DNA of 64,000 nt, from NCBI GenBank assembly GCA_024674815.1, contig GCA_024674815.1_4104.1; one strand, written 5' to 3'. This DNA is from a phage. Shown piece after piece: positions 18,985 to 59,939 of the stretch. A model generated the notes under the pieces. The model had not been told where the DNA came from. It made no database searches and saw only the letters and a program-made list of their open reading frames with translations. The stretch's first letter is position 1; each line of letters opens with the position of its first letter. Position numbers and translations under genes: made by a program.

Positions 18985-18998
18985 ATGTTATCCTCTAT

Positions 18999-19776: not shown

Positions 19777-19804
19777 AATTAAAATCCTCTAATTTATTAA
19801 GAGA

Positions 19805-19836
19805 ATTATAACAAAAAAGGCTGACCGAAGTCAACC
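19805..19836 (-). promoter_or_regulatory. PeSL-like cassette (terminator hairpin + promoter)
   Basis: ggctgaccgaagtcaacc hairpin; TTGACT-18-TATAAT. Confidence 0.6.
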
Positions 19837-20022: not shown

Positions 20023-20026
20023 AATA

Positions 20027-20377: not shown

Positions 20378-20379
20378 GA

Positions 20380-20757
20380 TTATTTTCCTCCAACGTTAAG
20401 TGATTTCTTGTACTGATATTCTTTATAAGTACTATACCATATATCACCAACGTAAATCAAGTACCACGTAGCAGGATAAAGAGCCAATCCAGTACTGATG
20501 TATACGAACTTTTGGTCAAGGACATCAAATACATACAGAAGGAAAGTTACTCCCATAATGCAAGAACAAATTAACCACAAGTTATAAGCAATCGAATCGC
20601 AAGCAAAAATAGAATCAAGCTTAGAAATTAGGACATATTTGTTTGTTAAAATGAAATGAATTACTGCAACTAAACAATATCCTGCCATAAAAATAGAAAT
20701 TAAAAAAGACAGAATAATTGGAATATTCAACAACAAAAGTAAAATAGTGTTTACCAT
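20380..20757 (-). CDS. multi-TM membrane protein
   Basis: Hydrophobic throughout. Confidence 0.6.
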   Translation of the reverse strand: MVNTILLLLLNIPIILSFLISIFMAGYCLVAVIHFILTNKYVLISKLDSIFACDSIAYNLWLICSCIMGVTFLLYVFDVLDQKFVYISTGLALYPATWYLIYVGDIWYSTYKEYQYKKSLNVGGK

Positions 20758-20768
20758 TTTTTTAAGTC

Positions 20769-21128
20769 CTATATTTCACAGTGTAAGTTCAATTTATCTA
20801 TATCTAGGTCACGGCGTACCGATGAGTCCAAGTAAATTACTATATAGATATCACCATTACCAGTTCTTGGGTCTACAATTAATATTACGTTTGCTAATGT
20901 ACCAGAATCATCTCTATAAGTCGAGATTTTTTTATTACCGATAATACTTTCTACTTTAAAACGATAAATCACACCATCAACAACTATATTTTTACCATTT
21001 CTAGGGTCGTTAGTCAATACATGCCACGTTCCCTTAGTACTACGACAATATGTTTCTGCTGCTGCACCATAACTAAAACATGAAAATAATGCACACACAA
21101 GTGCTATTAATTTTATATAACTCTTCAT
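20769..21128 (-). CDS. secreted protein
   Basis: MKSYIKLIALVCALFSCFSYGAAA signal peptide. Confidence 0.6.
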   Translation of the reverse strand: MKSYIKLIALVCALFSCFSYGAAAETYCRSTKGTWHVLTNDPRNGKNIVVDGVIYRFKVESIIGNKKISTYRDDSGTLANVILIVDPRTGNGDIYIVIYLDSSVRRDLDIDKLNLHCEI

Positions 21129-21206
21129 AACAAACCTCTAACGAGAAATACTTCTGTACTATATATATGTACAGAAGTATTTAATACTATAGAGATATTT
21201 TCACTG

Positions 21207-21533
21207 TTACATCTTATTCGTGAACTTGAATTTGATAATATCAATCCAAATTTTAACATTTCCTGCAAATAGTGCTTTGATTAGCCACATAATTGCAACA
21301 AAGTTCTCAACTAAATCCAAAGTTTTAACTACTGCACCGAGTGGGAAGATAAAACTCAAAATCCATACAATTACTGAAACCACAACGACTGTATAGAAAA
21401 TACGCACAATCGGTGAATCAAGCATAAACAACTCAGAGAACTCTTTTTTATCATTATCATCAGTAATAAAGCATTCGTAAACCAGAAGCCAAATCAGAAT
21501 TAAAGACGGAATTGAAATTAGTACTGATAGCAT
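21207..21533 (-). CDS. membrane protein
   Basis: Two or three hydrophobic helices. Confidence 0.6.
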   Translation of the reverse strand: MLSVLISIPSLILIWLLVYECFITDDNDKKEFSELFMLDSPIVRIFYTVVVVSVIVWILSFIFPLGAVVKTLDLVENFVAIMWLIKALFAGNVKIWIDIIKFKFTNKM

Positions 21534-21580
21534 ATTTTTTTACCTCAAGTTTAAGTGTTAAGTTTCAGACTACAGGAACC

Positions 21581-21608
21581 ATTATACAGTACTACGAACG
21601 TTTGTCAA
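21581..21608 (-). promoter_or_regulatory. near-consensus sigma70 promoter
   Basis: TTGACA-16-TATAAT on minus strand, upstream of 21207..21533. Confidence 0.6.
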
Positions 21609-21834
21609 CATTTGTTTCTTCAATAAGCATAAGATAACTTAACACGAAGAGTAATACCGAAATAATATCAATAACTGTAAAGCTCACTGGAATGATAATA
21701 GACACCAGTACTAATGCCACGTTTAGCAAGAATACAGTAGTGAGATCTACCATCGTTCGCCTAGTGGCTAATGCCACTAGTGTAGGATAGAACATAAACA
21801 ATAGTGCAACAACAAAACTTAGTACTAGATACAT
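21592..21834 (-). CDS. small membrane protein
   Basis: 80 aa, hydrophobic. Confidence 0.5.
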   Translation of the reverse strand: MYLVLSFVVALLFMFYPTLVALATRRTMVDLTTVFLLNVALVLVSIIIPVSFTVIDIISVLLFVLSYLMLIEETNVDKRS

Positions 21835-22505
21835 TTCTTTTTCACCTTAATAAAATTATAACACAAAACCACATCAACATCTGGCTCATCATACAAGTAC
21901 TCAAAACGTTCTTTACTTCGTTTAGTACCGATATACTCACCATTCTTATGCCAACGCCATCCACCATCCTTTGGTTGTTCAGACTTCAGTACTGGGTGAT
22001 AGCACAGGACAATTTCTTCTGGACCTTCAATTAGGTTCTTGTACTTATTCATAATCTGTTCAAGCGTATCTGCTACACCATAAGATGGATGCATAAGATA
22101 AGACTCAGGACGTGGACGTCCACTTGGTAGAATATCATCAGTACTATTAAAGATAGCACGGAAGTCTTCAGATGTGTATAGACTTCCATCTTCATGGATC
22201 ATTGGGTATTCATCCACGACATCGTAATCAGTGAAGTGTTCAATTGCATGTGCAGGTCGATAACCTGCAAGGATACCTGCATGTTTAGTCTGGACAATAG
22301 TCATAACAGATGTATTGTTGTTTACATTTGGATCATGAATTTCAGCCCAAAACGGATGATTTGGATCAAAAGTTGCATTTACCAATGTACACTCACCAAT
22401 GTAGTCAAACATAGTTTCCTTGAAGTTTAAAGAAACTCCACGTAATGCCCAGTCAGGTGAAGTGATGAAATTAAGATTAACTAACATAAGTATCCTCAGA
22501 TGCAA
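21825..22505 (-). CDS. hypothetical protein
   Basis: 226-aa ORF. Confidence 0.65.
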   Translation of the reverse strand: MHLRILMLVNLNFITSPDWALRGVSLNFKETMFDYIGECTLVNATFDPNHPFWAEIHDPNVNNNTSVMTIVQTKHAGILAGYRPAHAIEHFTDYDVVDEYPMIHEDGSLYTSEDFRAIFNSTDDILPSGRPRPESYLMHPSYGVADTLEQIMNKYKNLIEGPEEIVLCYHPVLKSEQPKDGGWRWHKNGEYIGTKRSKERFEYLYDEPDVDVVLCYNFIKVKKKCI

Positions 22506-22519
22506 TTTTTTTGATGTGG

Positions 22520-22735
22520 TTATTGTATCAAAGATGTATCGATTTGTACAACATTTATTGTAACTATTTCGTACATATAGTCAGGTGCATTGAACTCAGC
22601 ATACCACTCAATGATCTCACAAGCAGCATCAACTTGGTTGTTCGCATTAACACGTCTTGCATAGGTACTAGACATTTTATATCTACCATTTACATACACG
22701 TTATATACACCATGACACCACCACATCTTAGTCAT
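22520..22735 (-). CDS. hypothetical protein
   Basis: 71-aa ORF, co-oriented with neighbours. Confidence 0.45.
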   Translation of the reverse strand: MTKMWWCHGVYNVYVNGRYKMSSTYARRVNANNQVDAACEIIEWYAEFNAPDYMYEIVTINVVQIDTSLIQ

Positions 22736-22946
22736 TTATACTAGGCCATACTTTATATTGTAAGTTCTGGTATTGAAATTTACCAATTTCATTTTTCTTA
22801 CGGAATGATTCATCTACTTGAATTTCCGCATCGTACTGACCATCAGCCTGTACAACGTACTTAAATTCTTCTACGTGTGAAAAACGTTGACCTTCACCTT
22901 CTGGTTTATAGACTTGTACTAAACCTTCAACTAGATATAAATTCAT
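22728..22946 (-). CDS. hypothetical protein
   Basis: 72-aa ORF. Confidence 0.5.
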   Translation of the reverse strand: MNLYLVEGLVQVYKPEGEGQRFSHVEEFKYVVQADGQYDAEIQVDESFRKKNEIGKFQYQNLQYKVWPSIND

Positions 22947-22949
22947 TTA

Positions 22950-23171
22950 TCATTCCTCATCACTTTCAGTTAGCATAATGCTATGTACAGTTTCCACATA
23001 GCGGTGTGTTTTAGGTGTGTTATACTTTGTAATTTCATCAAACAATTTAAACAGTGCATCTACTTCACTAAGAGCACGAATGAATACATCCATCTTGGTG
23101 ACTACTCTGGAAAACCCGCGTATGTTATTAAATTCAGAGACGTGTTCATACACAACATAGTATCTATTCAT
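22950..23171 (-). CDS. hypothetical protein
   Basis: 73-aa ORF. Confidence 0.5.
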   Translation of the reverse strand: MNRYYVVYEHVSEFNNIRGFSRVVTKMDVFIRALSEVDALFKLFDEITKYNTPKTHRYVETVHSIMLTESDEE

Positions 23172-23686
23172 ATATTAAAAAGTTCCATGAATTCATTGAA
23201 TAAAGAAGTTCTAATGCACATAACAAATTCAAAATCAACATCTATGGTGTCAAGTAGTTTGAACAACTTTGGTACTAATGGATCATTCACCTCAAAGTTA
23301 TGAATCAAACTTTGTTGAAACACATTTTCTTCAGTACTATAATCAATAACAAAATATTCAGCAATACCAGGTGGTGTATAAACATCATATAAAATATGGC
23401 GGTGATGATTTGTTTTAGAACTAGGGGAATATATAAGTTCTATTTCATAAGATTTATCAGCACTGCGTGCGTAACAAACAATATCAGTACTCGTTATTTC
23501 TGAACCATCACTTCTCTCTGAAAAACAAACATCAGCATAGCGTTTTCCAGAGAGATTCAAAAGGTCATGAGTTGTTTTACCATAACAGAAATCAGTTTCA
23601 ATGCGTATCACATCTTGATATTCAATTGGTCTTGTATCGCGGCGTTCACGATTAAACACTAATTTCAACAACTCATTAATATCCAT
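23168..23686 (-). CDS. hypothetical protein
   Basis: 172-aa ORF. Confidence 0.65.
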   Translation of the reverse strand: MDINELLKLVFNRERRDTRPIEYQDVIRIETDFCYGKTTHDLLNLSGKRYADVCFSERSDGSEITSTDIVCYARSADKSYEIELIYSPSSKTNHHRHILYDVYTPPGIAEYFVIDYSTEENVFQQSLIHNFEVNDPLVPKLFKLLDTIDVDFEFVMCIRTSLFNEFMELFNI

Positions 23687-23943
23687 TATTTCGCCTCGAT
23701 AACCTTAAGGTTAACAAAATCACCTTTTACTTTCATGCATTTGAATTCAGTGCGAGTTTCATCCCCACTATCGCGAGGCCAATGAGTGGCAGAGTAGCAC
23801 TGGTCTGGTGTTTTATATACACCTTCACCAATAGTACGAGTGATTTCACCATTGGTGAGAACTACTGCGAGATATAAAGTAAACATGATATTCGCCTTAG
23901 AATAATTTATTAATAATAATAGCACCCAACGCAAGAACTGCAA
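23686..23943 (-). CDS. small secreted/membrane-anchored protein
   Basis: N-terminal hydrophobic segment. Confidence 0.5.
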   Translation of the reverse strand: MQFLRWVLLLLINYSKANIMFTLYLAVVLTNGEITRTIGEGVYKTPDQCYSATHWPRDSGDETRTEFKCMKVKGDFVNLKVIEAK

Positions 23944-24039
23944 TAATTACAGATACCCACATTACTGCATTCACTGTACCAGTAAGTTCTTTATCAAACT
24001 CCCTGCACTTCTTGCGGTAATCTTCCCACTCTTTGTTAT

Positions 24040-24255
24040 TCACACTGCCACTCCTAATAGGTCGGTAGCTTTCTTGAGTACTACGTCAATGGTTTCCAGT
24101 ACTGCACCTTTGTGTTCAATTGATACAATATTATTATAAGTATCAAGGTCCAAGTACTCCATATATTCAGTTTTGAATACACGAACATCAGTACTAGTGA
24201 TTTTAATATCACAACCTTTATCCCAAATAACCTGCATCATTTCATTGGTAGTCAT
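24040..24255 (-). CDS. hypothetical protein
   Basis: 71-aa ORF. Confidence 0.5.
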   Translation of the reverse strand: MTTNEMMQVIWDKGCDIKITSTDVRVFKTEYMEYLDLDTYNNIVSIEHKGAVLETIDVVLKKATDLLGVAV

Positions 24256-24530
24256 TATTCAACCTTATCATAAACAAGTTTGTGTGTGCTTAGTACTTTG
24301 TTGTGATGTCCAGGGCATTCATATACATACAATCGCTCCTGTCGTTTTTCCCAACCACCACAGATACGACCTGATTGTGTACATACCTCATACTCGTTAA
24401 TAAAAGACTTACCTGTGAATGTACAATCCTGACGAACTAAGTCTTTTGCACTAAACCTGCCGTCATCATTACATGCTGTAAGAAACATTGTACAGAATAC
24501 AAAGACAACTGTCAATAGTTTTTTAATCAT
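24255..24530 (-). CDS. putative lipoprotein
   Basis: Signal peptide with lipobox LTAC. Confidence 0.6.
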   Translation of the reverse strand: MIKKLLTVVFVFCTMFLTACNDDGRFSAKDLVRQDCTFTGKSFINEYEVCTQSGRICGGWEKRQERLYVYECPGHHNKVLSTHKLVYDKVE

Positions 24531-24895
24531 TGAACATCACCCCAACGGAAGCCATTCATATAATTCAAATTCACCTCAACGAGTTCATGTGTTTTTGTAC
24601 ACCAAATTGATAGAGTTTTTGTAACATCACCAGGTGAACTTTCATACTTCACACAATACCCTTCAATGCGAAGAGTTTTGTTAGTCCAATGTTGCCACTC
24701 AATCCAAATTTCATTAGGATAATAAACCATATCTTCCTTGAACCTATGGTATTGATCCATCGGTAAGTGACCTTCAACTTCAATTACTTCAGCACTTCGA
24801 ACAAGTTTGTCAAGCTTGTACTTTATCTCAGCAAGATATTCTTCATCATTCAGACGAGTTAATAAATCTGCTGCACGTGTTGTATCAAGGCTCAT
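24527..24895 (-). CDS. hypothetical protein
   Basis: 122-aa ORF. Confidence 0.6.
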   Translation of the reverse strand: MSLDTTRAADLLTRLNDEEYLAEIKYKLDKLVRSAEVIEVEGHLPMDQYHRFKEDMVYYPNEIWIEWQHWTNKTLRIEGYCVKYESSPGDVTKTLSIWCTKTHELVEVNLNYMNGFRWGDVQ

Positions 24896-24897
24896 TG

Positions 24898-25143
24898 TTA
24901 TTCTCCATGAATTACGGAAGTGTTGATTCGTGTTTTACCGCTAGTGTATCCAGTACTTGTATTTGCATTAGGACAGTACACAGTGTATAAAGTCGCACCA
25001 GCACCATCTTGTTGCATACGATAAATCTTACACCCTGCTTCTTTTAATTCAGCAGGTAGAACAAAATCACTTGTACGTTCTTTGGTAGAAGCATCACATG
25101 CAGTGAGTAGAAATGCGACGAGTACTGCTACAATGTATTTCAT
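24898..25143 (-). CDS. putative lipoprotein
   Basis: MKYIVAVLVAFLLTAC lipobox. Confidence 0.6.
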   Translation of the reverse strand: MKYIVAVLVAFLLTACDASTKERTSDFVLPAELKEAGCKIYRMQQDGAGATLYTVYCPNANTSTGYTSGKTRINTSVIHGE

Positions 25144-39750: not shown

Positions 39751-40116
39751 CTAATTGTGGGTTTTAACTAAACGTGAGACAGCTAGTATAGCATTAACCT
39801 CATCCAATGTCAACCCACCAATGTCATTAATCATTGAGTACTGAAATAGTGATTCTTCAGTGTAATGGTAATCATGAGAAGCAATAAAGATTGCTGGTTT
39901 AGAGGCATCCAAAATTATCTTTGTCATTGTACTATATATATCAAATTGATATAATAGATTTTCACCTGTATATGCTACGTAGATATTATTTGAATAGGAT
40001 GGATGTACCATTGTAAAACCATCATAACATAATATTTTTATGTTCGGATCGTCAAAATTGCCTGTATAAAGGTTATTACAAACATCTTGCATTATACGTA
40101 CTATTAGACTAGTCAT
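39751..40116 (-). CDS. EE-FQ-S motif family paralog
   Basis: C-terminal TEESLFQYSMINDIGGLTLDE. Confidence 0.65.
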   Translation of the reverse strand: MTSLIVRIMQDVCNNLYTGNFDDPNIKILCYDGFTMVHPSYSNNIYVAYTGENLLYQFDIYSTMTKIILDASKPAIFIASHDYHYTEESLFQYSMINDIGGLTLDEVNAILAVSRLVKTHN

Positions 40117-40534
40117 TTAATGGATTTAGAACCTCTTCTGGAATCAACTTTTGAACTTTAAGTATAGCTTTAATGTCCTCAAATGTTAATCCTAATATGT
40201 CGTTAAGGAGGCAGTACTGGAAGAATTTTTCTTCAGTATCAATATCGTTAACATTCAATTCAATTGATTCATCATCATAATCATAATCTTCATTATCACA
40301 TTCATAACTTCTGAATATAACTTTTTCAAAATACACATCAAATGAATAAAAATGATTATTGAATTCATAACCAAGAAAAATATTAAAACATTTACTCAAA
40401 TCTGTGGTTTGATTCAAATCTGGATCATAGCAAAATACTCTAACTTCACCAATATCTTCTAATTGTACATCATGCAGTGACCATGCGTTGTTTTTTAATA
40501 CATAGTTCACCATTTTAACAATGTTGTATGTCAT
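40109..40534 (-). CDS. EE-FQ-S motif family paralog
   Basis: C-terminal EEKFFQYCLLNDILGLTFED. Confidence 0.65.
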   Translation of the reverse strand: MTYNIVKMVNYVLKNNAWSLHDVQLEDIGEVRVFCYDPDLNQTTDLSKCFNIFLGYEFNNHFYSFDVYFEKVIFRSYECDNEDYDYDDESIELNVNDIDTEEKFFQYCLLNDILGLTFEDIKAILKVQKLIPEEVLNPLND

Positions 40535-40540
40535 AGTGTA

Positions 40541-40630
<90 letters not shown>

Positions 40631-40642
40631 AGAAGTAAGATA

Positions 40643-40743
<101 letters not shown>

Positions 40744-40795
40744 GCCAAGAGTCGGCATAGGTGCAGCACTACAAAGTTCTTCAAGCTGCTTGGTA

Positions 40796-40827
<32 letters not shown>

Positions 40828-40828
40828 T

Positions 40829-40885
<57 letters not shown>

Positions 40886-40887
40886 TA

Positions 40888-41014
<127 letters not shown>

Positions 41015-41033
41015 GCATACTCGAAGTACCTCT

Positions 41034-41071
<38 letters not shown>

Positions 41072-41096
41072 AACTGAATACTTACATCCTACGTCC

Positions 41097-41438
<342 letters not shown>

Positions 41439-41447
41439 TAATACCCG

Positions 41448-41849
41448 CTAGTAGTTTAAGTCTGCGGCGTTGAATACACCAAGTGAAGTCTTACCACGTA
41501 GTTTAGGTGAAAGGACATACTTTGTCAATTTCTTTTTACCGTACCAGTGATTGAATTCGTCTTCAGTAACATGTGGGTTCTGGAAATCGTATTCACGTTT
41601 CTTATGAAGTTTTTTAGCTTGTTCTGCAATCTTAGTTCGTTGATCTTCTGGAATGTCGAATGTATTGTTACGTTTGCACCATTCGTGCACTAATGCTTCC
41701 AGAAGGAACTGTTCAGTTTCTTTGACTAGAGTGATTTTAGTCAAGCCTTTTTCGATGTTCATATAATCATCGACATATCCATTCCAAATAACAATCTCTG
41801 GATTGCCGTCAATCTCTTGAAGCATTTTGATCAAGTCATTCTTTTTCAT
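41448..41849 (-). CDS. hypothetical protein
   Basis: 133-aa ORF. Confidence 0.6.
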   Translation of the reverse strand: MKKNDLIKMLQEIDGNPEIVIWNGYVDDYMNIEKGLTKITLVKETEQFLLEALVHEWCKRNNTFDIPEDQRTKIAEQAKKLHKKREYDFQNPHVTEDEFNHWYGKKKLTKYVLSPKLRGKTSLGVFNAADLNY

Positions 41850-41857
41850 TTAAATTC

Positions 41858-42115
<258 letters not shown>

Positions 42116-42124
42116 ATTTGTTTC

Positions 42125-42310
42125 CTATGAAATGAATGTAGCGTTAATTCCCATTATAAATGAAAATATACCAAACAATATCAACCCGATTGGTACAAAG
42201 ATCATAGATCTATTTCCATGTTTCGATAAAAATCGTTCAACTGTAATTAAACGTATTGATATCGGAACCATTATAATAATATACAATATTGAAAGAATTA
42301 AAAGTTGCAT
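42125..42310 (-). CDS. small membrane protein
   Basis: 61 aa, two hydrophobic segments. Confidence 0.45.
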   Translation of the reverse strand: MQLLILSILYIIIMVPISIRLITVERFLSKHGNRSMIFVPIGLILFGIFSFIMGINATFIS

Positions 42311-42323
42311 TTTAATTTCCTAT

Positions 42324-42749
<426 letters not shown>

Positions 42750-42765
42750 ATATCAATACTTAATA

Positions 42766-43143
<378 letters not shown>

Positions 43144-43149
43144 ATCACC

Positions 43150-43500
43150 AACTTTAATTAAAAAAATGGATGGTGACGCTTTTAAACGCCGCTGTTAATT
43201 CAGCTTTATAACCACCCGTTTTAACTTGCCTTTCGGCTACCTTGACGTGGGGCGTACAGGCTACTAAAAGCAACTACTGTAAACATATTTCCACGCCTTA
43301 CCCTTTTAAATAAAAGTCCATCCGGTTTTACAGTTTGGTGAAGGATAGTCACCTCTAGTTTAAACCTGCTAGTCAAGTAATAATTGCCTATCGTCCAATT
43401 ATCAAACCCGTCTAGGTTAACATTCACCACTTCCTAGAGTACCAGAGATCTTGTTCTGGATTGCATCGACGTAACTTACACCATATACGTCTGATTGTGG
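43150..43500 (-). ncRNA. candidate small stable RNA region in tRNA cluster
   Basis: ORF-poor; directly downstream of near-consensus promoter at 43506-43534; exact ends unknown. Confidence 0.25.
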
Positions 43501-43505
43501 AATTC

Positions 43506-43543
<38 letters not shown>

Positions 43544-43600
43544 ACAAATCTGGACGTTCATCTTTAAACATATTAATATCCTCAGTACTGAATTATTTAG

Positions 43601-44184
<584 letters not shown>

Positions 44185-44188
<4 letters not shown>

Positions 44189-44345
44189 ATTCGTACCAGT
44201 AGTTCAATTAAGTACATTTCATATGCTGGATCGTTGATAAGTTTATCATACATATGTGGCTCTGAAATGAATTCCCAATGATACTTTAGCCATTTACCGA
44301 TACCCGAATATCTAAAATTAATGTCATTCATCCATTCTTCATGTG

Positions 44346-44349
<4 letters not shown>
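44185..44349 (-). CDS. MTHEEW mini-protein paralog (~54 aa; approximate coordinates)
   Basis: Starts MTHEEWMNDINFRYSGIG; near-duplicate of next copy. Confidence 0.45.
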
Positions 44350-44510
<161 letters not shown>

Positions 44511-44515
44511 GGTTT

Positions 44516-44617
<102 letters not shown>

Positions 44618-44621
44618 ATTT

Positions 44622-44737
<116 letters not shown>

Positions 44738-44754
44738 ATGTGATGTCCCATTAT

Positions 44755-45027
44755 TTATGATTCAGTTTGAGGATTAAATTTGATAAATTCATCTTTATGT
44801 TCATCTTCAAACGCAATATCTTCTACGTATTCAGGCCAAATCGTAGTGTCTCCTTGATAAAAGCGATAATTATCAAATACTGCACTACGCGTTCTTCCCT
44901 GTTCCCAGCCAATCGTACAGTCATGATATACATCCCCACTACTTGTACGAATACTAATGGTGTCTTGAGTTTCATAAAGAACTTCAATGCGTGTGTTACG
45001 ATTTACGTTGAATTTTTCAAAATGCAT
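44755..45027 (-). CDS. hypothetical protein
   Basis: 90-aa ORF. Confidence 0.55.
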   Translation of the reverse strand: MHFEKFNVNRNTRIEVLYETQDTISIRTSSGDVYHDCTIGWEQGRTRSAVFDNYRFYQGDTTIWPEYVEDIAFEDEHKDEFIKFNPQTES

Positions 45028-45080
45028 AATATTATCCTCATCTAGAACCAGTGATAATCATTATATAATGAATTAATGAT

Positions 45081-45299
45081 TTATGCAAGTGTTTTAGATA
45101 CACCGACACCAATAATTCCAGTGATATCGATATGGATATTGGCAAGTTGATTACTATCATATGGGTTTGTTTCTGTAATAACCAATGTTGTATCATTGAC
45201 TAAAACCACAGTACCTTTTACACGATAACCATGTAGTAGTACTTGAACCTCATCTTCAGGTTTTAATGATTGAATAACTTCTAATAAAGTTGTTTCCAT
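45081..45299 (-). CDS. hypothetical protein (start trimmed)
   Basis: ORF; internal Met chosen to avoid overlap. Confidence 0.4.
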   Translation of the reverse strand: METTLLEVIQSLKPEDEVQVLLHGYRVKGTVVLVNDTTLVITETNPYDSNQLANIHIDITGIIGVGVSKTLA

Positions 45300-45315
45300 T
45301 TTTTGTATTCCTTGT

Positions 45316-45498
45316 TTAGTTTTGATTATTTGACTTTCTAAATGCCAGTTCGCATATAAACCAGGGTTTTCTGGTATCCAAAACATATGACCTGAAAAGA
45401 TTTTCATCTCTTAATATATCATAATGTACCTGACGAATGCCATTCCCAAAGCAGTCATGTTCTTTATGCTGTTTGGACATCCATTCTTCGTGTGTCAT
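45316..45498 (-). CDS. MTHEEW mini-protein paralog
   Basis: MTHEEWMSKQHKEHDCFGNGIRQVHYDIL. Confidence 0.55.
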   Translation of the reverse strand: MTHEEWMSKQHKEHDCFGNGIRQVHYDILRDENLFRSYVLDTRKPWFICELAFRKSNNQN

Positions 45499-45499
45499 T

Positions 45500-45835
<336 letters not shown>

Positions 45836-45840
45836 TCTTA

Positions 45841-46017
45841 CTATTTTTTATCTCTAATAGCAAGCTCGTAGATGAACCAGTGGTTGGAATCTTCGTTCAA
45901 AACCAATGATTCGAACGTTTTTTTATCGTTCAAAACATCATAATGGCCTTGGCGTATACCAAATCCAAAATGATCATGTTTATATTTTAGTGACTCTATC
46001 CATTCTTCATGTGTCAT
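45841..46017 (-). CDS. MTHEEW mini-protein paralog
   Basis: MTHEEWIESLKYKHDHFGFGIRQGHYDVL; ~90-bp DNA repeat with 45478-45565. Confidence 0.55.
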   Translation of the reverse strand: MTHEEWIESLKYKHDHFGFGIRQGHYDVLNDKKTFESLVLNEDSNHWFIYELAIRDKK

Positions 46018-46095
46018 TTTATGTATCCAGTTCAATTAAGTGTTTCATTTATTCTTCTGTAAAGAAAGCATTGCAATGGACAATGGAAAAGGTTA

Positions 46096-46275
46096 TTATA
46101 TTTTTTTGTCTCTAACCGCAAGCTCATAGATGAACCAACGATTTCCATTCTCATCTAGTACATATGATTCGAACTTATATTTGTCTCGTAAAATATCGAA
46201 ATGACCATCAATAAATCCATTTCCAAACTGGTCATAACGTTTTTTCATCATTGCCATCCATTCTTCATGTGTCAT
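46096..46275 (-). CDS. MTHEEW mini-protein paralog (59 aa; approximate coordinates)
   Basis: MTHEEWMAMMKKRYDQFGNGFIDGHFDIL; ATGA overlap with upstream gene. Confidence 0.45.
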   Translation of the reverse strand: MTHEEWMAMMKKRYDQFGNGFIDGHFDILRDKYKFESYVLDENGNRWFIYELAVRDKKI

Positions 46276-46457
46276 CTCTTAATATCCATAACGGCTATAC
46301 TAAAATATGTACCAAAATCATCACAATTGATAATGTTGTTATAGTACTCAATTGGATTACGCAATGATATATACAATTCAAGCTTAAAATAGTATATATC
46401 TGCTGCATTTATATTATAGTGTAGATTAAACCACTCATCAAATGTCTTAGGCTGCAT
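46272..46457 (-). CDS. hypothetical protein
   Basis: 61-aa ORF. Confidence 0.45.
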   Translation of the reverse strand: MQPKTFDEWFNLHYNINAADIYYFKLELYISLRNPIEYYNNIINCDDFGTYFSIAVMDIKR

Positions 46458-46851
46458 TATATTTATCTTTATAAAAATCCATGATTTTAGTCAACAGTAC
46501 TGCAATCGTATAATCTAAATCAGGATAAAGTAAATTGTACTGAAATTCTTCCTCAACACTATAGTTAGTGGTACAGTACTGGTAATCTTTATAACCAATG
46601 GAAAAATGGTTAGGATACAATGTACAACGAAAACGATATGCTTCATCTGTCATATAATCATTGTATTCAACACAGAAGTATAGTGATTTGGCATTTAATT
46701 CAATAAGCTCAACGAAACCATCAGGCAATGAATGGTTATAAATTACTGAATCTTCATTAAACCATTCATAGTATTTTTCCAAAAAATCACTAATGGATAC
46801 ATCCAGACTTTGTATAGGTGGAGTTATGATAATTTGAACTTCTTTATTCAT
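46447..46851 (-). CDS. EE-FQ-S motif family paralog (divergent)
   Basis: C-terminal VEEEFQYNLLYPDLD. Confidence 0.6.
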   Translation of the reverse strand: MNKEVQIIITPPIQSLDVSISDFLEKYYEWFNEDSVIYNHSLPDGFVELIELNAKSLYFCVEYNDYMTDEAYRFRCTLYPNHFSIGYKDYQYCTTNYSVEEEFQYNLLYPDLDYTIAVLLTKIMDFYKDKYNAA

Positions 46852-47396
46852 TTCGATCCCTTACTATATTTTACGTATGGGCTATCATACAGATCATAAC
46901 TTTTTTGTGCACGTTCTTTTCGGCGTTCATACATGATTCTATCATACTCTTTAGCTTTCTGATTTGCTTCATTATACAATTTTAAAATTAGCAAAAATGC
47001 ATCAAGATCGGGATAGTTTGCTGGATTGATAGTACTCAGCATAAATCGTTCTTCTTCAGTTCTAGCTAAGTCAAATTCATACTTAATAGTTTTATACCCA
47101 CTCCATTTATATATATGCGTTACTTTATTAGTAAGTACATTATATTCAACGAAGTCAGTACTACCATCAAGTACGCGAGTGATCTTAATAGATGTACCAA
47201 TGACAATCTGTACAGAACTCATTTCTGAAGTTTTAAAGTAATAAATGTTATTACGGCGAAGATTAACTTCTCGATCTCCAATGCGAACATGCTTAATAAC
47301 TTCCATTAATGGTTCTGGTACACCACGAATTGGCATGTTAATGCTCCTTTTTAATTCTATACATTTTAACAGCACTGGTTTCCCAAAAGTCACCAT
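46848..47396 (-). CDS. EE-FQ-S motif family paralog
   Basis: C-terminal TEEERFMLSTINP. Confidence 0.6.
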   Translation of the reverse strand: MVTFGKPVLLKCIELKRSINMPIRGVPEPLMEVIKHVRIGDREVNLRRNNIYYFKTSEMSSVQIVIGTSIKITRVLDGSTDFVEYNVLTNKVTHIYKWSGYKTIKYEFDLARTEEERFMLSTINPANYPDLDAFLLILKLYNEANQKAKEYDRIMYERRKERAQKSYDLYDSPYVKYSKGSK

Positions 47397-53200: not shown

Positions 53201-53655
53201 TAATCATCACCTTTTAGTAATTTACAAATTTCAATCATATGATAATAACATGTATTCCAAAATTGTCCATTAGTACTTCCAACATCATGCACTGTACTTT
53301 GCTGGAACACATATTCATCGTTGAACATCATTTTAATATCATCAATGTAAAATTCTGGTTTTGAATCATTATTGTATTCAATACTCGTTTCACCATCTGG
53401 ATCAAGTGAAATTGATGATATGTCGTGAATTCCTCTCGGATTTGTTGGATAAATTCTCAACGTAAGAGGATAGAAGTCTGGATCGGTTTCATAAGTATAT
53501 TCGATTATGTAATAACCATCACCAGTAATTGATTGATATTTAAATGTAGTTTCAATTGAATTTGAGATGTTAAATCCCAGTTTCTTTATCTCATGTAGAT
53601 GTGATAATATTTTATGTAAAGATCCTAAAACATGAATCAAATTATCAATTTTCAT
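53200..53655 (-). CDS. EE-FQ-S motif family paralog
   Basis: C-terminal NDEYVFQQSTVHDVG. Confidence 0.65.
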   Translation of the reverse strand: MKIDNLIHVLGSLHKILSHLHEIKKLGFNISNSIETTFKYQSITGDGYYIIEYTYETDPDFYPLTLRIYPTNPRGIHDISSISLDPDGETSIEYNNDSKPEFYIDDIKMMFNDEYVFQQSTVHDVGSTNGQFWNTCYYHMIEICKLLKGDD

Positions 53656-54194
53656 TTACGATCCTTTGAAAAGTTCAGTTTAAAAGTTTTACCAAATTCC
53701 ATTGTAGCTTTACCCAGATTGTTAATATTTTCTTTCAACATTTCTTGCATCTTCCTAATACTTTCAATCCAGGCTTCTTCTTCGATACGAAGAATTGGTC
53801 GCAATCGTTCCTGAATATCGTTAAAACGTGTATTGAGTTCAACCAATGATTCATATGTGAAATCTTTCATATCGATAATAGTACTTCTTTGAAAGAATTC
53901 TTCTTCAGACAAATTACTTAAAATGATTTTATCACGACCAATAGATAATGTCAATTCATCATCTTTATTTTTTTTAATTACAATACTAATAGGTGTTTTT
54001 AATGTAATGCAAATATCATGATTATTAAATGTTTCAGTTTGGTTTGACATTCTGAATTGAAGTTTCCCAGATAAAGCATGTACTGGTGATGGTTGCTTTT
54101 TACCCGTAATAACATCTTCCCATGAATCGAGAATATTATTAATAATTTTAACATAAGGAATTGGCATATATGCACCTGTGAAAAATCCACGCAA
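53652..54194 (-). CDS. EE-FQ-S motif family paralog with C-terminal extension
   Basis: SEEEFFQRSTIIDMKD followed by ~60 extra residues. Confidence 0.65.
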   Translation of the reverse strand: MRGFFTGAYMPIPYVKIINNILDSWEDVITGKKQPSPVHALSGKLQFRMSNQTETFNNHDICITLKTPISIVIKKNKDDELTLSIGRDKIILSNLSEEEFFQRSTIIDMKDFTYESLVELNTRFNDIQERLRPILRIEEEAWIESIRKMQEMLKENINNLGKATMEFGKTFKLNFSKDRK

Positions 54195-54209
54195 TGCGTG
54201 GATTTGTAA

Positions 54210-54740
54210 TTATTCAAGTATAGTAATTTCAATTAAACGAATTTCGATAAACTCGTTTTCAGTTTCCCATGACGTGCCAAATTTCTTTTCAAGTTCAGAT
54301 TTCACATCACTTTTAAATTTTCCCATAGTATTAGGAATAATTTGTTTGGTTAATTTGTCGTAACCACAATAAAACATAGGTTTCTCCCTTCGAGATATTA
54401 GCTGAACAAAATCTTTTGGATATGCAGGTATGTTATGCATCACTTCATGAATACACTCAGTACTTGAATCTTGTACTTTGTACATTACATTAAGTTTACC
54501 TCTGAAATTTGCGGTCATATCAACAATAGTTCCTTTACCCGATTTAAGTAAAGTTCCATTCTTTGAATGAGAGCAATAAAATACCTCATCACCAATATTA
54601 GGATAATACAAATTAAATTCTAATTCAGATTTTACAGCCAGCCGTTTGAAACTTTCTGTACGTTTTATATAAGTTTGGTATTTGTTTATGTTCAAAAGAA
54701 TATCTCTCTTAGTAAATGTGATATAACTGGCATAGTCCAT
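54210..54740 (-). CDS. hypothetical protein (start overlaps methyltransferase 3' end)
   Basis: 176-aa ORF, 49-bp overlap with 54692..55552. Confidence 0.55.
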   Translation of the reverse strand: MDYASYITFTKRDILLNINKYQTYIKRTESFKRLAVKSELEFNLYYPNIGDEVFYCSHSKNGTLLKSGKGTIVDMTANFRGKLNVMYKVQDSSTECIHEVMHNIPAYPKDFVQLISRREKPMFYCGYDKLTKQIIPNTMGKFKSDVKSELEKKFGTSWETENEFIEIRLIEITILE

Positions 54741-55552
54741 CCATTCCCAAGCATTTTGTATGCTTGTGTCTTACTAGACACTTTAAAGAAATCTTCAGGA
54801 ACACCCTGTAATTTACAACATTCTACTACACTTAAGTGTCTATAGTCAATATTTCTTTTGCCATTCTCTAATAGATATTGACGACTGATCACTGGGTCAC
54901 GAAACACCAATTGTCGTCTGGATTTATTAAAGTACTGGTTACAATCACCACCTTTAAAATAGTTAGCATCTATACAGTACGAAGCGGTTCTGTCAGTGTA
55001 CCAACCATCTTCAATAATATCTTGAAGTTTAGGTGCATTGGATAATGCAGGTGGTATAAAAAGCTTATCAGTACTGTACCAGTAATATCTCTGCCTGAAG
55101 TGAGGCGTATAATGCTGGGAGTTTATCAGTACTGGCGTGATTCCTAAAATACTATTAATGTATTCTTTGAAATCTTCCTTCATTTTAACATTTTCAAACA
55201 GAAATTTCAAGTTAGGATTGAGACTTTTGATATGATCAAAAATTTCAACCATTACTAAAAATAACTGCCCACGTATATCATTTAAACCACCCTGTTTACC
55301 TGCAACTGACCAGGCTTGACATGGGAAACCACCCATTAATAAATCTATTTTATCCCACTCAATATCCCATTCTCTCCACTTAGTTACATCACCCAATTGG
55401 ATAATATCAGGAAAGTTAGCTTGAGATTCAGCTATTGCGTACTTGTCAATTTCGGATGAATAATATTTTTCAACTGGGATACCAGCATCTTGCAATGCCA
55501 TATATCCCACACTCATTCCATTAAAAAGAGAAAGTACTCGGATAGGTTTCAT
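54692..55552 (-). CDS. DNA (cytosine-5)-methyltransferase
   Basis: Motif I LFNGMSVG; catalytic GFPCQAWS; ENV; C-terminal GNGWT. Confidence 0.9.
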   Translation of the reverse strand: MKPIRVLSLFNGMSVGYMALQDAGIPVEKYYSSEIDKYAIAESQANFPDIIQLGDVTKWREWDIEWDKIDLLMGGFPCQAWSVAGKQGGLNDIRGQLFLVMVEIFDHIKSLNPNLKFLFENVKMKEDFKEYINSILGITPVLINSQHYTPHFRQRYYWYSTDKLFIPPALSNAPKLQDIIEDGWYTDRTASYCIDANYFKGGDCNQYFNKSRRQLVFRDPVISRQYLLENGKRNIDYRHLSVVECCKLQGVPEDFFKVSSKTQAYKMLGNGWTMPVISHLLREIFF

Positions 55553-55604
55553 ATAAAATCCTTTTTATATTGTTAAGGTACTATAATATATTATAGCATC
55601 TTAT

Positions 55605-55895
55605 TTAGAAATCTTCCAAACTTTTTTCATCACACCATCGTGATGTACAGATGATTGCAGATGCCAGAATTGAAGCACTTGCACGTCCTCCACCGAGTAA
55701 GTACTGGCTAATTACGCCAATCATATTGAACACTTTATCATACTCGGTTAGTTGTTCAAAACCTTTCTTCCAATGCTCATATTCTTCTTCTGTGACATTA
55801 AACTCACCATCAAGTTCCTTTAAAATCTTTTTAAGCACATCACTATGTTCACTCATCATCATCTCCATATCGTTCGTCATAAAAATCATCATCAC
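55605..55895 (-). CDS. hypothetical protein
   Basis: 96-aa ORF. Confidence 0.55.
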   Translation of the reverse strand: MMMIFMTNDMEMMMSEHSDVLKKILKELDGEFNVTEEEYEHWKKGFEQLTEYDKVFNMIGVISQYLLGGGRASASILASAIICTSRWCDEKSLEDF

Positions 55896-56209: not shown

Positions 56210-56650
56210 TTAATTGAACTCTACTTCTGGATAATGATTATAGAACATCTCACGAACTGCGTCAAGATGTTCTTGAAATTGTTTTATATCTTCTAATGAT
56301 GGTGCATCAATAACAGTACTAAGTTGAAACAACGATTCTTCTGTGTTATATAGTGACATATCAAATGAATTATTGTTGTCATCAGTTATGATATTATCAC
56401 AAATTTCGTAAGTGTCAATACAAACATCATCAAGTGTTGTATTATCATATACAGTGTATACGAATACAAAAATAAAAGAAGAATGTTCTTTACCATAACG
56501 CGGTGGGTCATATGTCACATAGCATTTGTGGTCAAATGTATCGAGTTCCATAGACACCACCCCAGCTTCACGATATTCATTAGTTTCACTGGTAAGATCC
56601 GGTATTGATGTTATCGAAAGTAAGTGGAGAAATTTACTTGGATTTAGCAT
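56210..56650 (-). CDS. EE-FQ-S motif family paralog
   Basis: C-terminal TEESLFQLSTVIDAPSLEDI. Confidence 0.65.
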   Translation of the reverse strand: MLNPSKFLHLLSITSIPDLTSETNEYREAGVVSMELDTFDHKCYVTYDPPRYGKEHSSFIFVFVYTVYDNTTLDDVCIDTYEICDNIITDDNNNSFDMSLYNTEESLFQLSTVIDAPSLEDIKQFQEHLDAVREMFYNHYPEVEFN

Positions 56651-57105
56651 TTCACCACCATTGGATTTTGCGACTGTATATTAAAAAGGGATAATACAAA
56701 AGTACTCAATTTTTCGAAACAATCTACTAATACATTTAACTCATCATAACTAACACCAATTTCACGAATAAGCGATTGTTGAAAGAATCCTTCTTCGGTT
56801 AACGTTAAACTACTAACCTCAGTTATGTTATAATAACTTTGGGATGTTGTGGTTGATATTAGTTGTATTGCAATCGTATCTGATGTTGTGTTGTACAGAT
56901 ATAAATATTTTGTTTTTCTTTCCAATGGATCTATACATGAAAGATCGATCATGTCATAGGTTTTTCCAATAAAAATATTACAATCATCTGACAATTCACA
57001 ACAAATGCGTATATGTTCTTTCGGGTCATGAACACGTTGTGTGTCAAATTCACATGACATTGCAATTTCAAAATGATTTTTTATTTCGTCAACATTCATC
57101 CGCAC
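56644..57105 (-). CDS. EE-FQ-S motif family paralog
   Basis: C-terminal TEEGFFQQSLIREIGVSYDE. Confidence 0.65.
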   Translation of the reverse strand: MRMNVDEIKNHFEIAMSCEFDTQRVHDPKEHIRICCELSDDCNIFIGKTYDMIDLSCIDPLERKTKYLYLYNTTSDTIAIQLISTTTSQSYYNITEVSSLTLTEEGFFQQSLIREIGVSYDELNVLVDCFEKLSTFVLSLFNIQSQNPMVVKC

Positions 57106-57473
57106 CCACCATTAATTCTTATATTTGTATAGTTTAATGCTTTTTTAATAATACCAATTTCTGTAATTCCTATTACATTTTTCTCAATCAATGACAATTG
57201 GAATAGTTCCTCTTCGGAAATATCAATACTGTGGATTCTTGTACAATAATCGTTGAAGTCATATACATATCGTATTGTATAGTCGTTTATAGAAACTGAT
57301 ACAATTGCAATCCCATCATGGATGTAAGTTAGTTCATTTGAGTATCTATTAAAAATTAACCTATCTGGTGAACCTATTGGTAGTTGAAATGTATTTCTAG
57401 TATCTTGAACAATAACAAAATCATCATCTATATTTCTACTCAGAACACCCAAAATATCATATATAGTAGACAT
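57096..57473 (-). CDS. EE-FQ-S motif family paralog
   Basis: C-terminal SEEELFQLSLIEKNVIGIT. Confidence 0.65.
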   Translation of the reverse strand: MSTIYDILGVLSRNIDDDFVIVQDTRNTFQLPIGSPDRLIFNRYSNELTYIHDGIAIVSVSINDYTIRYVYDFNDYCTRIHSIDISEEELFQLSLIEKNVIGITEIGIIKKALNYTNIRINGGCG

Positions 57474-57474
57474 G

Positions 57475-57879
57475 TTATTCTTTACCTTCAGCAGTTCTGA
57501 TAATTTTCATAACTTCTCTGGATAGTGCGTATATTTTTTTATAGTACTCAAATGTAACTGAACCAAAATCATTAATAGTACTAGCCATGAAGAACGATTC
57601 TTCTGTATATAGTTCATTTGACAAAGCAACCAGTTCTTGGTGAAATTTTGCGTCCTTCCAATAACGAAATTCAAAAACAAATTGTCCGTCATGACCGACT
57701 CTACAACATTCAGAACGATCACTGTCTACACAGCTAAACACAATATCCCTTTCAGAGTCGTACCAGATATTTCCAATATTTGTTTCAATAACAGCATAAT
57801 CAATTTTTTTAGAATTTGGAATTAAACCTTTTTTCACCAGCACTAAACTGGTATTATCAATATCTAGTAAACTTACCAT
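57475..57879 (-). CDS. EE-FQ-S motif family paralog
   Basis: C-terminal TEESFFMASTINDFGSVT. Confidence 0.65.
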   Translation of the reverse strand: MVSLLDIDNTSLVLVKKGLIPNSKKIDYAVIETNIGNIWYDSERDIVFSCVDSDRSECCRVGHDGQFVFEFRYWKDAKFHQELVALSNELYTEESFFMASTINDFGSVTFEYYKKIYALSREVMKIIRTAEGKE

Positions 57880-57880
57880 A

Positions 57881-58291
57881 TCAATTCCCCATTACTAAAG
57901 TGTTTTTAATCTCCAACAATTCACTATACATATTCTTCAATTGTAATATATCTTCAAAAGTAATACCACCAAGATCATCAACTAATGAACGTTGGAATAA
58001 AGATTCACTTGTTTGTAATGTATCTAAATCGGTGATTTTTAATAAAGAACTTGGATTAAGTGTTTCGACTAGTAGTATGTTTTTGTATGGTACATATGTG
58101 ATCTTGATGTTCTTTTTATAATTAATCTTATAAAATCGCATAATTGACGATTCATCACTTAGTTGGATAATTGGGTCGTCTTGTTCATTAGACCACCATA
58201 CAGTACTAGTCATATGATTGACGTGGTGGTTCAATTCTGATATGTCCAAATCTAAAAAATATTTTAGTTCATTGTGTAAATCTAAACTCAT
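57881..58291 (-). CDS. EE-FQ-S motif family paralog
   Basis: C-terminal TSESLFQRSLVDDLGGITFED. Confidence 0.65.
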   Translation of the reverse strand: MSLDLHNELKYFLDLDISELNHHVNHMTSTVWWSNEQDDPIIQLSDESSIMRFYKINYKKNIKITYVPYKNILLVETLNPSSLLKITDLDTLQTSESLFQRSLVDDLGGITFEDILQLKNMYSELLEIKNTLVMGN

Positions 58292-59507: not shown

Positions 59508-59936
59508 TTAGAGAGATTCTTCGTATTCAGCAACAATCTCAACCATTTCATTAATGAACTTGATGTGAGAATGTGTCACTGTACGGAAGTCGTAAACAAG
59601 TGACTGTTGGAAAAATACATCTTCATCAAGAGAACCATCAAAGTTCAAATCAATGTTTTCATCGTCATTGCTTGGTGCAACTTTAATATTCAGAAGATTT
59701 TCATCAACTGCAAGTTTTACAACACAACCCAGTGCAATGGCAAGAACATATGCTGGTTTCTTAGCTTTTTCATTACGGAATGGTGCACGTAGAGCACAAA
59801 AAGTACTGCTAATCTCATCATTTGGTTCTTTGTATTTAACATTGACCATTAGTTCTTCGATTTTGACGCTCTCAATAACACGACCAGTTTCTGGAGCGAA
59901 GAAAGAATGTTCACGGATAGTTTGTTCGATATTCAT
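59508..59936 (-). CDS. EE-FQ-S motif family paralog
   Basis: C-terminal DEDVFFQQSLVYDFRTVT. Confidence 0.65.
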   Translation of the reverse strand: MNIEQTIREHSFFAPETGRVIESVKIEELMVNVKYKEPNDEISSTFCALRAPFRNEKAKKPAYVLAIALGCVVKLAVDENLLNIKVAPSNDDENIDLNFDGSLDEDVFFQQSLVYDFRTVTHSHIKFINEMVEIVAEYEESL

Positions 59937-59939
59937 ATA

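Follow-up and report, generated by a model that had tools for sequence, protein, structure and literature searches.

An orphan DNMT3-like C5-cytosine DNA methyltransferase and an overlapping small ORFan gene in a Rak2-like jumbo coliphage

In a 64,000-nucleotide stretch of phage DNA (the whole stretch that was analyzed; here, the window), a methyltransferase gene and the small gene behind it probably form a single transcription unit on the minus strand, composed of a promoter-like site, the gene of a C5-cytosine DNA methyltransferase, a small ORFan gene, and a terminator. In the reading that we prefer, the methyltransferase is an orphan enzyme that protects the phage DNA; we assign this explanation as a whole a probability of about 0.6. 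Neither the gene nor its orphan status nor its presumed protective role is new, because GenBank annotation and several papers cover all three. What our analysis adds is (i) a correction of the start site of the downstream gene, (ii) the description of the enzyme as DNMT3-like, (iii) the ORFan family of the downstream protein and its predicted fold, and (iv) the rejection of a link between the enzyme and a GTAC-containing palindrome.

The locus has the following features.

55590 to 55619, minus strand: sigma-70-like promoter, TTGGAA-18 nt-TATAAT with an extended -10 element (TGcTATAAT), from a consensus scan and the sequence
55559 to 55563, minus strand: Shine-Dalgarno-like AAGGA, 6 nt upstream of the methyltransferase ATG, read from the sequence
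54692 to 55552, minus strand: C5-cytosine DNA methyltransferase, 286 aa, intein-free, from PF00145, TIGR00675, motifs, and orthologs
54696 to 54740, minus strand: 15-codon upstream extension of the downstream ORF (ATG at 54740), inside methyltransferase motif X
54210 to 54695, minus strand: downstream gene, conserved core of 161 aa, with a likely TTG start that overlaps the methyltransferase TGA (TTGA)
54183 to 54205, minus strand: intrinsic terminator hairpin, AAAUCCACGC-AUU-GCGUGGAUUU followed by UUCAC, directly 3' of the downstream gene

The promoter-like site lies within the 52-nt gap upstream of the methyltransferase gene and has a perfect extended -10 element; the call is a consensus match only, in a region that is overall no richer in such matches than shuffled sequence. 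At the other end, the hairpin at 54205 to 54183 is strong (-14.9 kcal/mol and z = -3.1 by RNA folding) and closes the two-gene unit; it carries a terminator annotation in G17 and UE-S1 and is conserved in Turkey5. Both genes would be transcribed as a unit, possibly early, from the host-type promoter, and the methyltransferase would be translated from its good Shine-Dalgarno sequence.

Source phage and orthologs

The window derives from a “Rak2-like” Asteriusvirus jumbo coliphage (121Q/PBECO4/G17 group), whose relatives are virulent myoviruses with jumbo genomes (about 350 kb). A 2.6-kb segment around the locus matches 46 phage records in all, with 100% identity to Escherichia phage vB_EcoM_E9.1 and 98.8 to 99.7% identity to G17, Sharanji, 121Q, PBECO4, phAPEC6, and slurp01. 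The surroundings of the locus are an array of fast-evolving small ORFs, and its neighbors are small ORFan paralogs.

The methyltransferase is the ortholog of 121Q gp91, G17_00216, and RaK2 gp194 and is 100% identical to the proteins of G17, E9.1, and Sharanji; it is the sole C5-cytosine DNA methyltransferase of the clade. Orthologs were found in every Rak2-like lineage checked, with identities of 64 to 100%: 76 to 100% in other Asteriusvirus phages, 78% and 76.5% in the Erwinia phages Hallingskeid and Kaldavass, 77.5% in Xanthomonas XbC2, 76% in Pectobacterium CBB, 75% in Cronobacter GAP32, and 64% in Klebsiella RaK2, K64-1, and Muenster. The next relatives belong to phi92-like phages (51 to 60% identity), followed by a wider family of short phage and metagenomic C5-methylases with more than 8000 matches at E ≤ 1e-10. 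More than 40 GenBank records, including those of 121Q gp91 and G17_00216, already annotate the gene as a DNA (cytosine) methyltransferase, and in some records the labels “HaeIII,” “HpaII,” and “DNMT2” have been transferred onto it.

In several of these phages the gene is interrupted. An intein sits at the catalytic Cys78 in UE-S1, ph0011, A4, TH47, JNE01, and L012, and such an insertion at the catalytic cysteine in sister phages is more unusual than the methyltransferase finding itself. The window gene is not this allele (Hint and LAGLIDADG at Cys78), as its 286 codons are uninterrupted.

Identity of the methyltransferase

The ORF at 54692 to 55552 encodes a complete C5-cytosine DNA methyltransferase, which lies above the cutoffs of both PF00145 (E = 4.1e-38; 132 bits against 22) and TIGR00675 (120 bits against 100.65). 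A first-pass annotation of this DNA had credited the enzyme with all hallmark motifs, and this is borne out. In canonical order, they are the AdoMet-binding motif I (FNGMSVG, aa 10 to 16), motif IV with the catalytic Pro-Cys (PCQ, aa 77 to 79; nucleophile Cys78), motif VI (ENV, aa 120 to 122), motif VIII (RQR, aa 153 to 155), motif IX (RHLSVVE, aa 238 to 244), and motif X (GNGW, aa 269 to 272). The target-recognition domain (TRD) between motifs VIII and IX is short, at about 80 aa (aa 157 to 237), and is conserved in the orthologs. With this set of motifs, the window enzyme is predicted to transfer a methyl group onto C5 of DNA cytosine. The same annotation had called the enzyme Dcm-like, a label that is valid at the superfamily level but not for the E. 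coli Dcm subfamily, against whose model (CCWGG; NF007772) the methyltransferase scores 21.4 bits at a cutoff of 710.

Among solved structures, the best relatives are the catalytic domains of DNMT3A/B/C (E of about 2e-23), which are colinear with the window enzyme over residues 2 to 282 of 286. In the same PDB comparison, M.HhaI and M.HaeIII score behind them (about 1e-17); M.HhaI aligns over the N-terminal half only and M.HaeIII in two stretches, the best of which covers aa 6 to 204. PADLOC orphan-methylase models of 883 and 912 aa give a full-length match to the methyltransferase. Thus, the catalytic domain is nearest to DNMT3 among characterized enzymes, and the TRD is short, as in DNMT3. 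We use “DNMT3-like” for a resemblance in size, short TRD, and motifs I, VIII, and X as read from the sequence, and not for assignment to a clade. Not all parts of the protein share this resemblance: motif IV and the catalytic loop (GFPCQAWSVAGKQGG) look like those of typical bacterial enzymes such as M.HhaI. The enzyme would be better described as a minimal DNMT3-like methylase than as the Dcm- or HaeIII-like protein that several records make of it.

Orphan status and protective role

That no endonuclease candidate adjoins the gene, as the first-pass annotation had stated, agrees with our searches. The 10 flanking ORFs gave no restriction endonuclease or defense match in PADLOC and Pfam, with the reservation that divergent nucleases could escape sequence methods. 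The adjoining cognate endonuclease of a type II restriction-modification system is therefore missing among these matches, and the orphan label holds as far as sequence methods can tell. The further proposal of an orphan, self-protective methylase is supported by this lack of a nearby nuclease, by the virulent jumbo phage background, and by published statements on orthologs. The phAPEC6 paper lists two methylases, one for N6-adenine and the other for C5, and suggests a protective role for methylation, and the Sharanji and UE-S1 publications likewise contain protective-methylation statements for the orthologs.

Protection of the phage DNA by methylation is the most likely role of the methyltransferase. 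Using AdoMet and Cys78, the enzyme would place 5-methylcytosine on phage DNA after replication, and this methylation would blunt host restriction enzymes whose sites contain the target of the enzyme (most likely CG-site enzymes).

DNA target of the methyltransferase

The RaK2 paper (PMC3622015) reports two methyltransferases, gp194 and gp447, the first of which is the ortholog of the window enzyme. According to this paper, the only enzymes that cut RaK2 DNA were those that Dam, Dcm, CpG, and EcoKI methylation does not affect, and bisulfite treatment of RaK2 DNA indicated m5CpG; both statements are given as data not shown, and the sentence on bisulfite is truncated in the paper. Because the RaK2 ortholog is connected with m5CpG and the architecture of the window enzyme is DNMT3-like, the target of the latter is by analogy most likely CpG or a short CG-containing motif. 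The two enzymes have the TRD core YCIDANYxKGGxxxQYxxKSRRQxV in common, so that the CpG target may reasonably be carried across. Against this stands the distance between them, as the RaK2 ortholog is 64% identical to the window enzyme and has 8 residues inserted into its catalytic loop. For Asteriusvirus and other Rak2-like phages, searches of the literature turned up no methylome data beyond the RaK2 “data not shown” sentence.

The composition of the window (CpG rho of 0.78; TpG/CpA of 1.23) gives weak support for CpG. To assess deamination, the window was aligned with PBECO4, JP4, UE-S1, and a third lineage; unpolarized C/T differences in these alignments showed an excess at CpG (OR of 1.5 to 1.9). 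This excess is an artifact of composition, because TpG far outnumbers CpG, and it vanishes on polarization: across five lineages, C>T changes affected 44 of 404 CpG sites and 297 of 3199 CpH sites (OR = 1.19; P = 0.32); this test gave no significant sign of CpG hypermutability.

GCGC is absent from the window (0 against 23 to 49 expected) and from all of the roughly 250 kb of Rak2-like sequence examined. The window also lacks nearly every GC-rich palindrome of 6 bp, CG-containing ones such as CTCGAG and TCCGGA included. Evidently, methylation is not the only anti-restriction strategy of the phage. If CpG methylation were complete, part of so heavy a site avoidance would be superfluous, which argues somewhat against the CpG target.

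It is conceivable that host DNA is instead the main substrate of the enzyme or that its role is regulatory (epigenetic or in timing), a variant being that the enzyme's target, e.g., GCGC, is a site that the phage lacks. The absence of GCGC from window and relatives would suit this explanation, as would the possible host-type early promoter upstream of the gene. We nevertheless consider it quite unlikely, for three reasons: RaK2 virion DNA is itself reported to be CpG methylated and resistant to methylation-sensitive enzymes, the window offers 1386 CpG sites usable as substrate, and no methyl-dependent nuclease was detected in the flanking ORFs.

The GTAC-containing palindrome

The first-pass annotation had further suggested that the methyltransferase target might relate to an enriched palindrome containing GTAC. 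The enrichment is real. GTAC occurs 475 times in the window (195 expected), AGTACT 176 times (21.7 expected), and the full palindrome CAGTACTG 40 times (0.6 expected), a 67-fold excess that is clade-wide. The palindrome is evenly distributed along the window, and each of the three codon frames has an excess of it (z = +18.8 relative to shuffles of synonymous codons). RaK2, Turkey5, GAP32, and all metagenomic relatives have it as well. In a comparison of the window with UE-S1, 75 to 85% of the AGTACT sites are conserved, as opposed to 58% for any hexamer. A literature search for CAGTACTG as a named motif returned primer-type occurrences only.

These observations would fit the idea that the methyltransferase marks the C of (C)AGTACT(G) and that the abundance of the palindrome is tied to the mark, either as a sign of self-identity or as a HIP1-like, methyltransferase-driven motif. 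The palindrome is strongly selected, its AGTACT core is conserved beyond the level of other hexamers, and both the palindrome and an ortholog of the enzyme occur in every Rak2-like genome piece examined. This co-occurrence is, however, confounded by phylogeny, because a single clade, and thus one clade-level event, is involved. Moreover, CpG, the context of the methylation reported for RaK2 (m5CpG; PMC3622015), does not occur in the palindrome, and AGTACT is missing altogether (16.8 expected) from the phi92-like phage Paula, whose methylase is the closest outgroup enzyme and shares the TRD core. C>T changes at GTAC (10 of 140) are not above those at other C positions. The downstream protein is not Vsr-like (see below), so that no driver of very-short-patch repair lies adjacent to the enzyme. 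We therefore regard the palindrome as an unlikely target of the methyltransferase. Once this link fails, the clade-wide enrichment of CAGTACTG and the total avoidance of GCGC are left as separate and more interesting features.

Start codon of the downstream gene

In most GenBank records, as in the first-pass annotation, the downstream gene is placed at 54210 to 54740 (minus strand; 176 aa), starting 49 nt inside the methyltransferase gene. An ORF with this overlap does exist, but as biology it is doubtful, since the homologs start at residue 16. Distant homologs (tblastn; about 45% identity) align only from that residue, and a metagenomic homolog of 71% identity (P0124) is 161 aa long and starts exactly at the codon-16 position, 1 nt after the methylase stop. 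In Turkey5, an ATG stands 1 nt after the methyltransferase TAA (TAA-t-ATG-AAC) where the window reads TTGAAC. Turkey5 and the window differ here by an indel of 5 nt, which changes TTTTAATATGAAC to TTTTGAAC; comparison of the two junctions thus indicates that the indel swapped TAA..ATG for an overlapping TGA/TTG. The junctions in A4, L007, GAP32, and RaK2 range from a 14-nt overlap to a 29-nt gap, and the 15-codon extension is absent or out of frame in Turkey5, A4, P0124, and L007. The extension also evolves differently from the rest of the protein: compared with UE-S1, 3 of its 15 residues differ (20%) versus 4 of the 161 core residues (2.5%), i.e., it changes about 8 times faster, while the same nucleotides read in the methyltransferase frame contain one conservative change only.

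Given the homolog starts, the Turkey5 junction, and the divergence from UE-S1, the real start of the downstream protein is likely the TTG at 54695, in a 4-nt NTGA overlap with the methyltransferase stop. The extension at 54696 to 54740 is probably not part of the real protein, and the 49-nt overlap is probably a start-codon miscall that arose from calling the longest ORF. As this overlap has been copied through dozens of GenBank records, the correction to the TTGA junction is of value in itself.

An NTGA stop/start overlap is a classic arrangement favoring translational coupling. The coupled expression of the two genes that had been suggested on the basis of the 49-nt overlap is thus plausible, but it would act through the TTGA start/stop overlap, and the adjacency of the two genes is only loosely conserved, at the domain level. 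The small downstream protein would probably be made by ribosomes that end at the TGA and start anew at the TTG overlapping it.

The downstream protein

An exhaustive profile search against 1.84 billion representatives retrieved only 13 relatives of the downstream protein. As judged from these sequences, it is a member of a tiny ORFan family restricted to the Rak2-like clade. AF2 modeling from 3 sequences gave a pLDDT of 48, and modeling from a 12-sequence alignment derived from the exhaustive profile search gave a pLDDT of 87.9. The latter model predicts an N-terminal helix, a five-stranded barrel at about residues 35 to 100, and a C-terminal alpha/beta module at residues 103 to 160. The modeled barrel is Tudor/SH3-like, and a BFVD fold search with the protein returned uncharacterized proteins of the same clade only.

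Three features, an overlap as in dcm-vsr, a length near 160 aa, and the enrichment of the palindrome, led us to consider Vsr as an identity for the downstream gene. It was rejected: the protein has no PF03852 or PD-(D/E)xK match, and its predicted fold, being Tudor/SH3-like, is of another type. An explanation by a multicopy gene family was likewise rejected, as the gene is single-copy in the window.

Homologs of the downstream gene directly follow a C5-methylase gene in L007, L008, L009, and L010 and lie 2 to 4 genes downstream of it in L012 and L013. In RaK2, gp195 (70 aa) corresponds to the C-terminal module alone and directly follows gp194; in GAP32, the barrel alone is represented, by gp391 (with a 14-nt overlap with the methylase) and by gp393. 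From the placement of the homologs and the splitting of the modules, the association with the methylase persists, though in modular form, and could be a matter of shared synteny.

We see about an even chance that the downstream ORF is simply an unrelated small early gene, joined to the methylase by an operon and ancestral synteny and not coupled to it beyond cotranscription. Consistent with this are the shuffled modules in RaK2 and GAP32, the displaced homologs in L012 and L013, the position of the locus in an array of fast-evolving small ORFs, and the phi92-like phages, which carry the methylase without the downstream protein. On the other hand, every informative locus has a homolog or one of its modules 0 to 4 genes downstream of a C5-methylase, most loci have start and stop close together (an overlap of at most 14 nt or a gap of 1 to 29 nt), and the gene is single-copy in the window.

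A closer partnership can be imagined in two forms. (i) The methyltransferase and the Tudor/SH3-like protein may be a dedicated Rak2-like module in which the barrel recruits or regulates a minimal DNMT3-like CpG methylase. We think this improbable; if true, the module, with its “Royal-family-like” barrel, would parallel, in a virus, the PWWP/DNMT3L accessory logic known from DNMT3 in eukaryotes and might bear on the origin of DNMT3. (ii) The two genes may form a hypermodification pathway, in which the downstream protein would further process the 5mC that the methylase produces, in the manner of methyltransferase/TET(5mYOX)/glycosyltransferase systems. Phage C5-methylases are indeed known beside 5mC-processing enzymes (Burke et al. 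2021; bioRxiv 2023.12.21.572611), and the two window genes are tightly coupled. The downstream protein has, however, no dioxygenase or transferase fold or motif, and Iyer et al. 2021 found no TET/JBP enzymes in jumbo phages. On these two grounds a TET-like pathway was rejected, and we consider hypermodification of this kind very improbable. The reading that we retain is that of a two-gene unit around an orphan protective methylase.

Comparison with known systems

The pair recalls E. coli dcm-vsr, in which a C5-methylase gene runs at its 3' end into the start of a second gene, about 160 codons long, that is transcribed with it. The window contains a similar overlapping pair, but its downstream protein is not Vsr and its enzyme is not an ortholog of Dcm. 

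The TET/5mYOX-coupled phage C5-methylases are, like the window enzyme, short, phage encoded, and orphan; they show preference at the dinucleotide level and act postreplicatively (Burke et al. 2021; bioRxiv 2023.12.21.572611). They differ from it in that GpC is preferred and that dioxygenases and glycosyltransferases adjoin them, none of which occurs at the window locus.

Within the Rak2-like clade, the orthologs (121Q gp91, PBECO4, G17_00216, phAPEC6, CBB, GAP32 gp390, and RaK2 gp194) represent the same gene in the same length class, with the TRD core and the genomic neighborhood in common and with no substantive difference. At the level of residues, RaK2 gp194 is set apart from the window enzyme by the 8-residue insertion in its catalytic loop and by SPC in place of FPC in motif IV.

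The bacterial CpG methyltransferases M.SssI and M.MpeI are similar to the window enzyme in their orphan-like use and in the presumed dinucleotide target. Neither is close to it in sequence, M.MpeI (PDB 4dkj) being absent among the 50 PDB matches at E ≤ 1e-3, and both are larger enzymes. If the window enzyme is CpG specific, it would rank among the smallest CpG methylases and would be a possible tool enzyme.

The comparison with DNMT3A, DNMT3B, and DNMT3C (PDB 8tci, 6kda, and 5yx2) shows differences as well as likenesses. The window enzyme has no PWWP or ADD regulatory domain, as the protein begins 3 residues before motif I and PF00145 is its sole Pfam match; it has no DNMT3L-type partner, and its TRD aligns unconvincingly with those of DNMT3. 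What the enzymes share is their size (about 285 aa) and a short TRD, motif I (KPIRVLSLF[ND]G), motif VIII (HxRxRY[FY]W), and a similar C-terminal motif X, together with a CpG target on the side of DNMT3 that is the same mark as that reported for the RaK2 ortholog (m5CpG).

Word usage in the window and its relatives

The 8-bp palindrome CAGTACTG occurs 40 times in the whole window, with 0.6 occurrences expected (about 67-fold excess), and AGTACT was counted 176 times versus an expectation of 21.7. Occurrences of CAGTACTG are evenly spaced along the window and fall in every codon frame, and the palindrome is more conserved than other hexamers. Within the methyltransferase locus, examples of the palindrome lie at the following positions.

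54459, 54931, 55070, 55128, 55533: palindrome occurrences

The same signature is present in the Rak2-like jumbo phages RaK2, Turkey5, and GAP32 and in metagenomic relatives (loci L015, L016, L007, L012, L018, and L019). A literature search for CAGTACTG as a named motif returned no match.

The tetranucleotide GCGC is wholly absent from the window (0 versus 23-49 expected) and from every Rak2-like locus analyzed (about 250 kb altogether; RaK2, 0/38; Turkey5, 0/54). Other CG tetramers show just mild depletion. Because this avoidance covers phages of Escherichia, Klebsiella, and Cronobacter, it points to a phage-intrinsic cause rather than to one host restriction system.

In addition to methylases, the window shows extensive restriction-site avoidance. 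Nearly all 6-bp palindromes with G/C flanks have a count of zero in the whole window (for example, CTGCAG, CCATGG, CAGCTG, GGATCC, GGTACC, TCCGGA, CTCGAG, and GCATGC), and GATC reaches about half of its expected count; no avoidance of CACGTG or GTGCAC was seen in the window.

An intein in the methyltransferase gene of sister phages

Several sister phages have an intein, absent from the window, in this methyltransferase gene. It is in frame, about 340 aa long, and contains a LAGLIDADG homing endonuclease. The intein-bearing genes are as follows.

L002, 2587-4467: phage UE-S1
L005: phage ph0011
L006, 1075-2973: phage A4
L012, 51-1946: related locus

Within the PCQ motif, the insertion falls precisely at the junction of Pro77 and the catalytic Cys78 (GGFP|C...VVHN|CQAWS), so that the catalytic cysteine also acts as the +1 splicing nucleophile. 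The same interruption, at residue 78, is seen in the TH47 and JNE01 methyltransferases. No intein in the methyltransferase is mentioned in the UE-S1 paper.

Genes surrounding the methylase operon

The methylase operon sits within an array of paralogs, small ORFs of 125-185 aa that share the motif EE.(F/L)FQ.S(T/L)(I/V) around residue 100. At least eight copies exist in the window, none of which has a Pfam or PADLOC match.

53203-54209, 56213-57891, 59511-59939, 23171-23704 (-): paralogous small ORFs

In the part of related genomes that corresponds by homology to about 40000-47000 of the window, a tRNA cluster (two Ser, Met, Asn, Thr, Arg, and Gly) is annotated; small ORFs lie in between, with an HNH endonuclease in some relatives. 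In this region the window is mosaic with respect to Escherichia phage E9.1, which in one place matches only query positions 11880-25000 of window segment 30001-55000.

On the short metagenomic contig L011, a 349-aa ORF (3-1049, -) adjoins P0129, a homolog of the small downstream partner gene, in divergent orientation. Its score against DUF559, a member of the Vsr-like endonuclease superfamily, is barely subthreshold (20.2 bits; cutoff, 20.6).

Comparison with the closest outgroup methylase

The closest outgroup methylase is carried by the phi92-like Escherichia phage Paula (L017, 1-50000), whose word usage is opposite to that of the window: AGTACT is absent (0 observed versus 16.8 expected), GCGC is frequent (87 observed versus 61), and CCWGG is enriched 2.6-fold.
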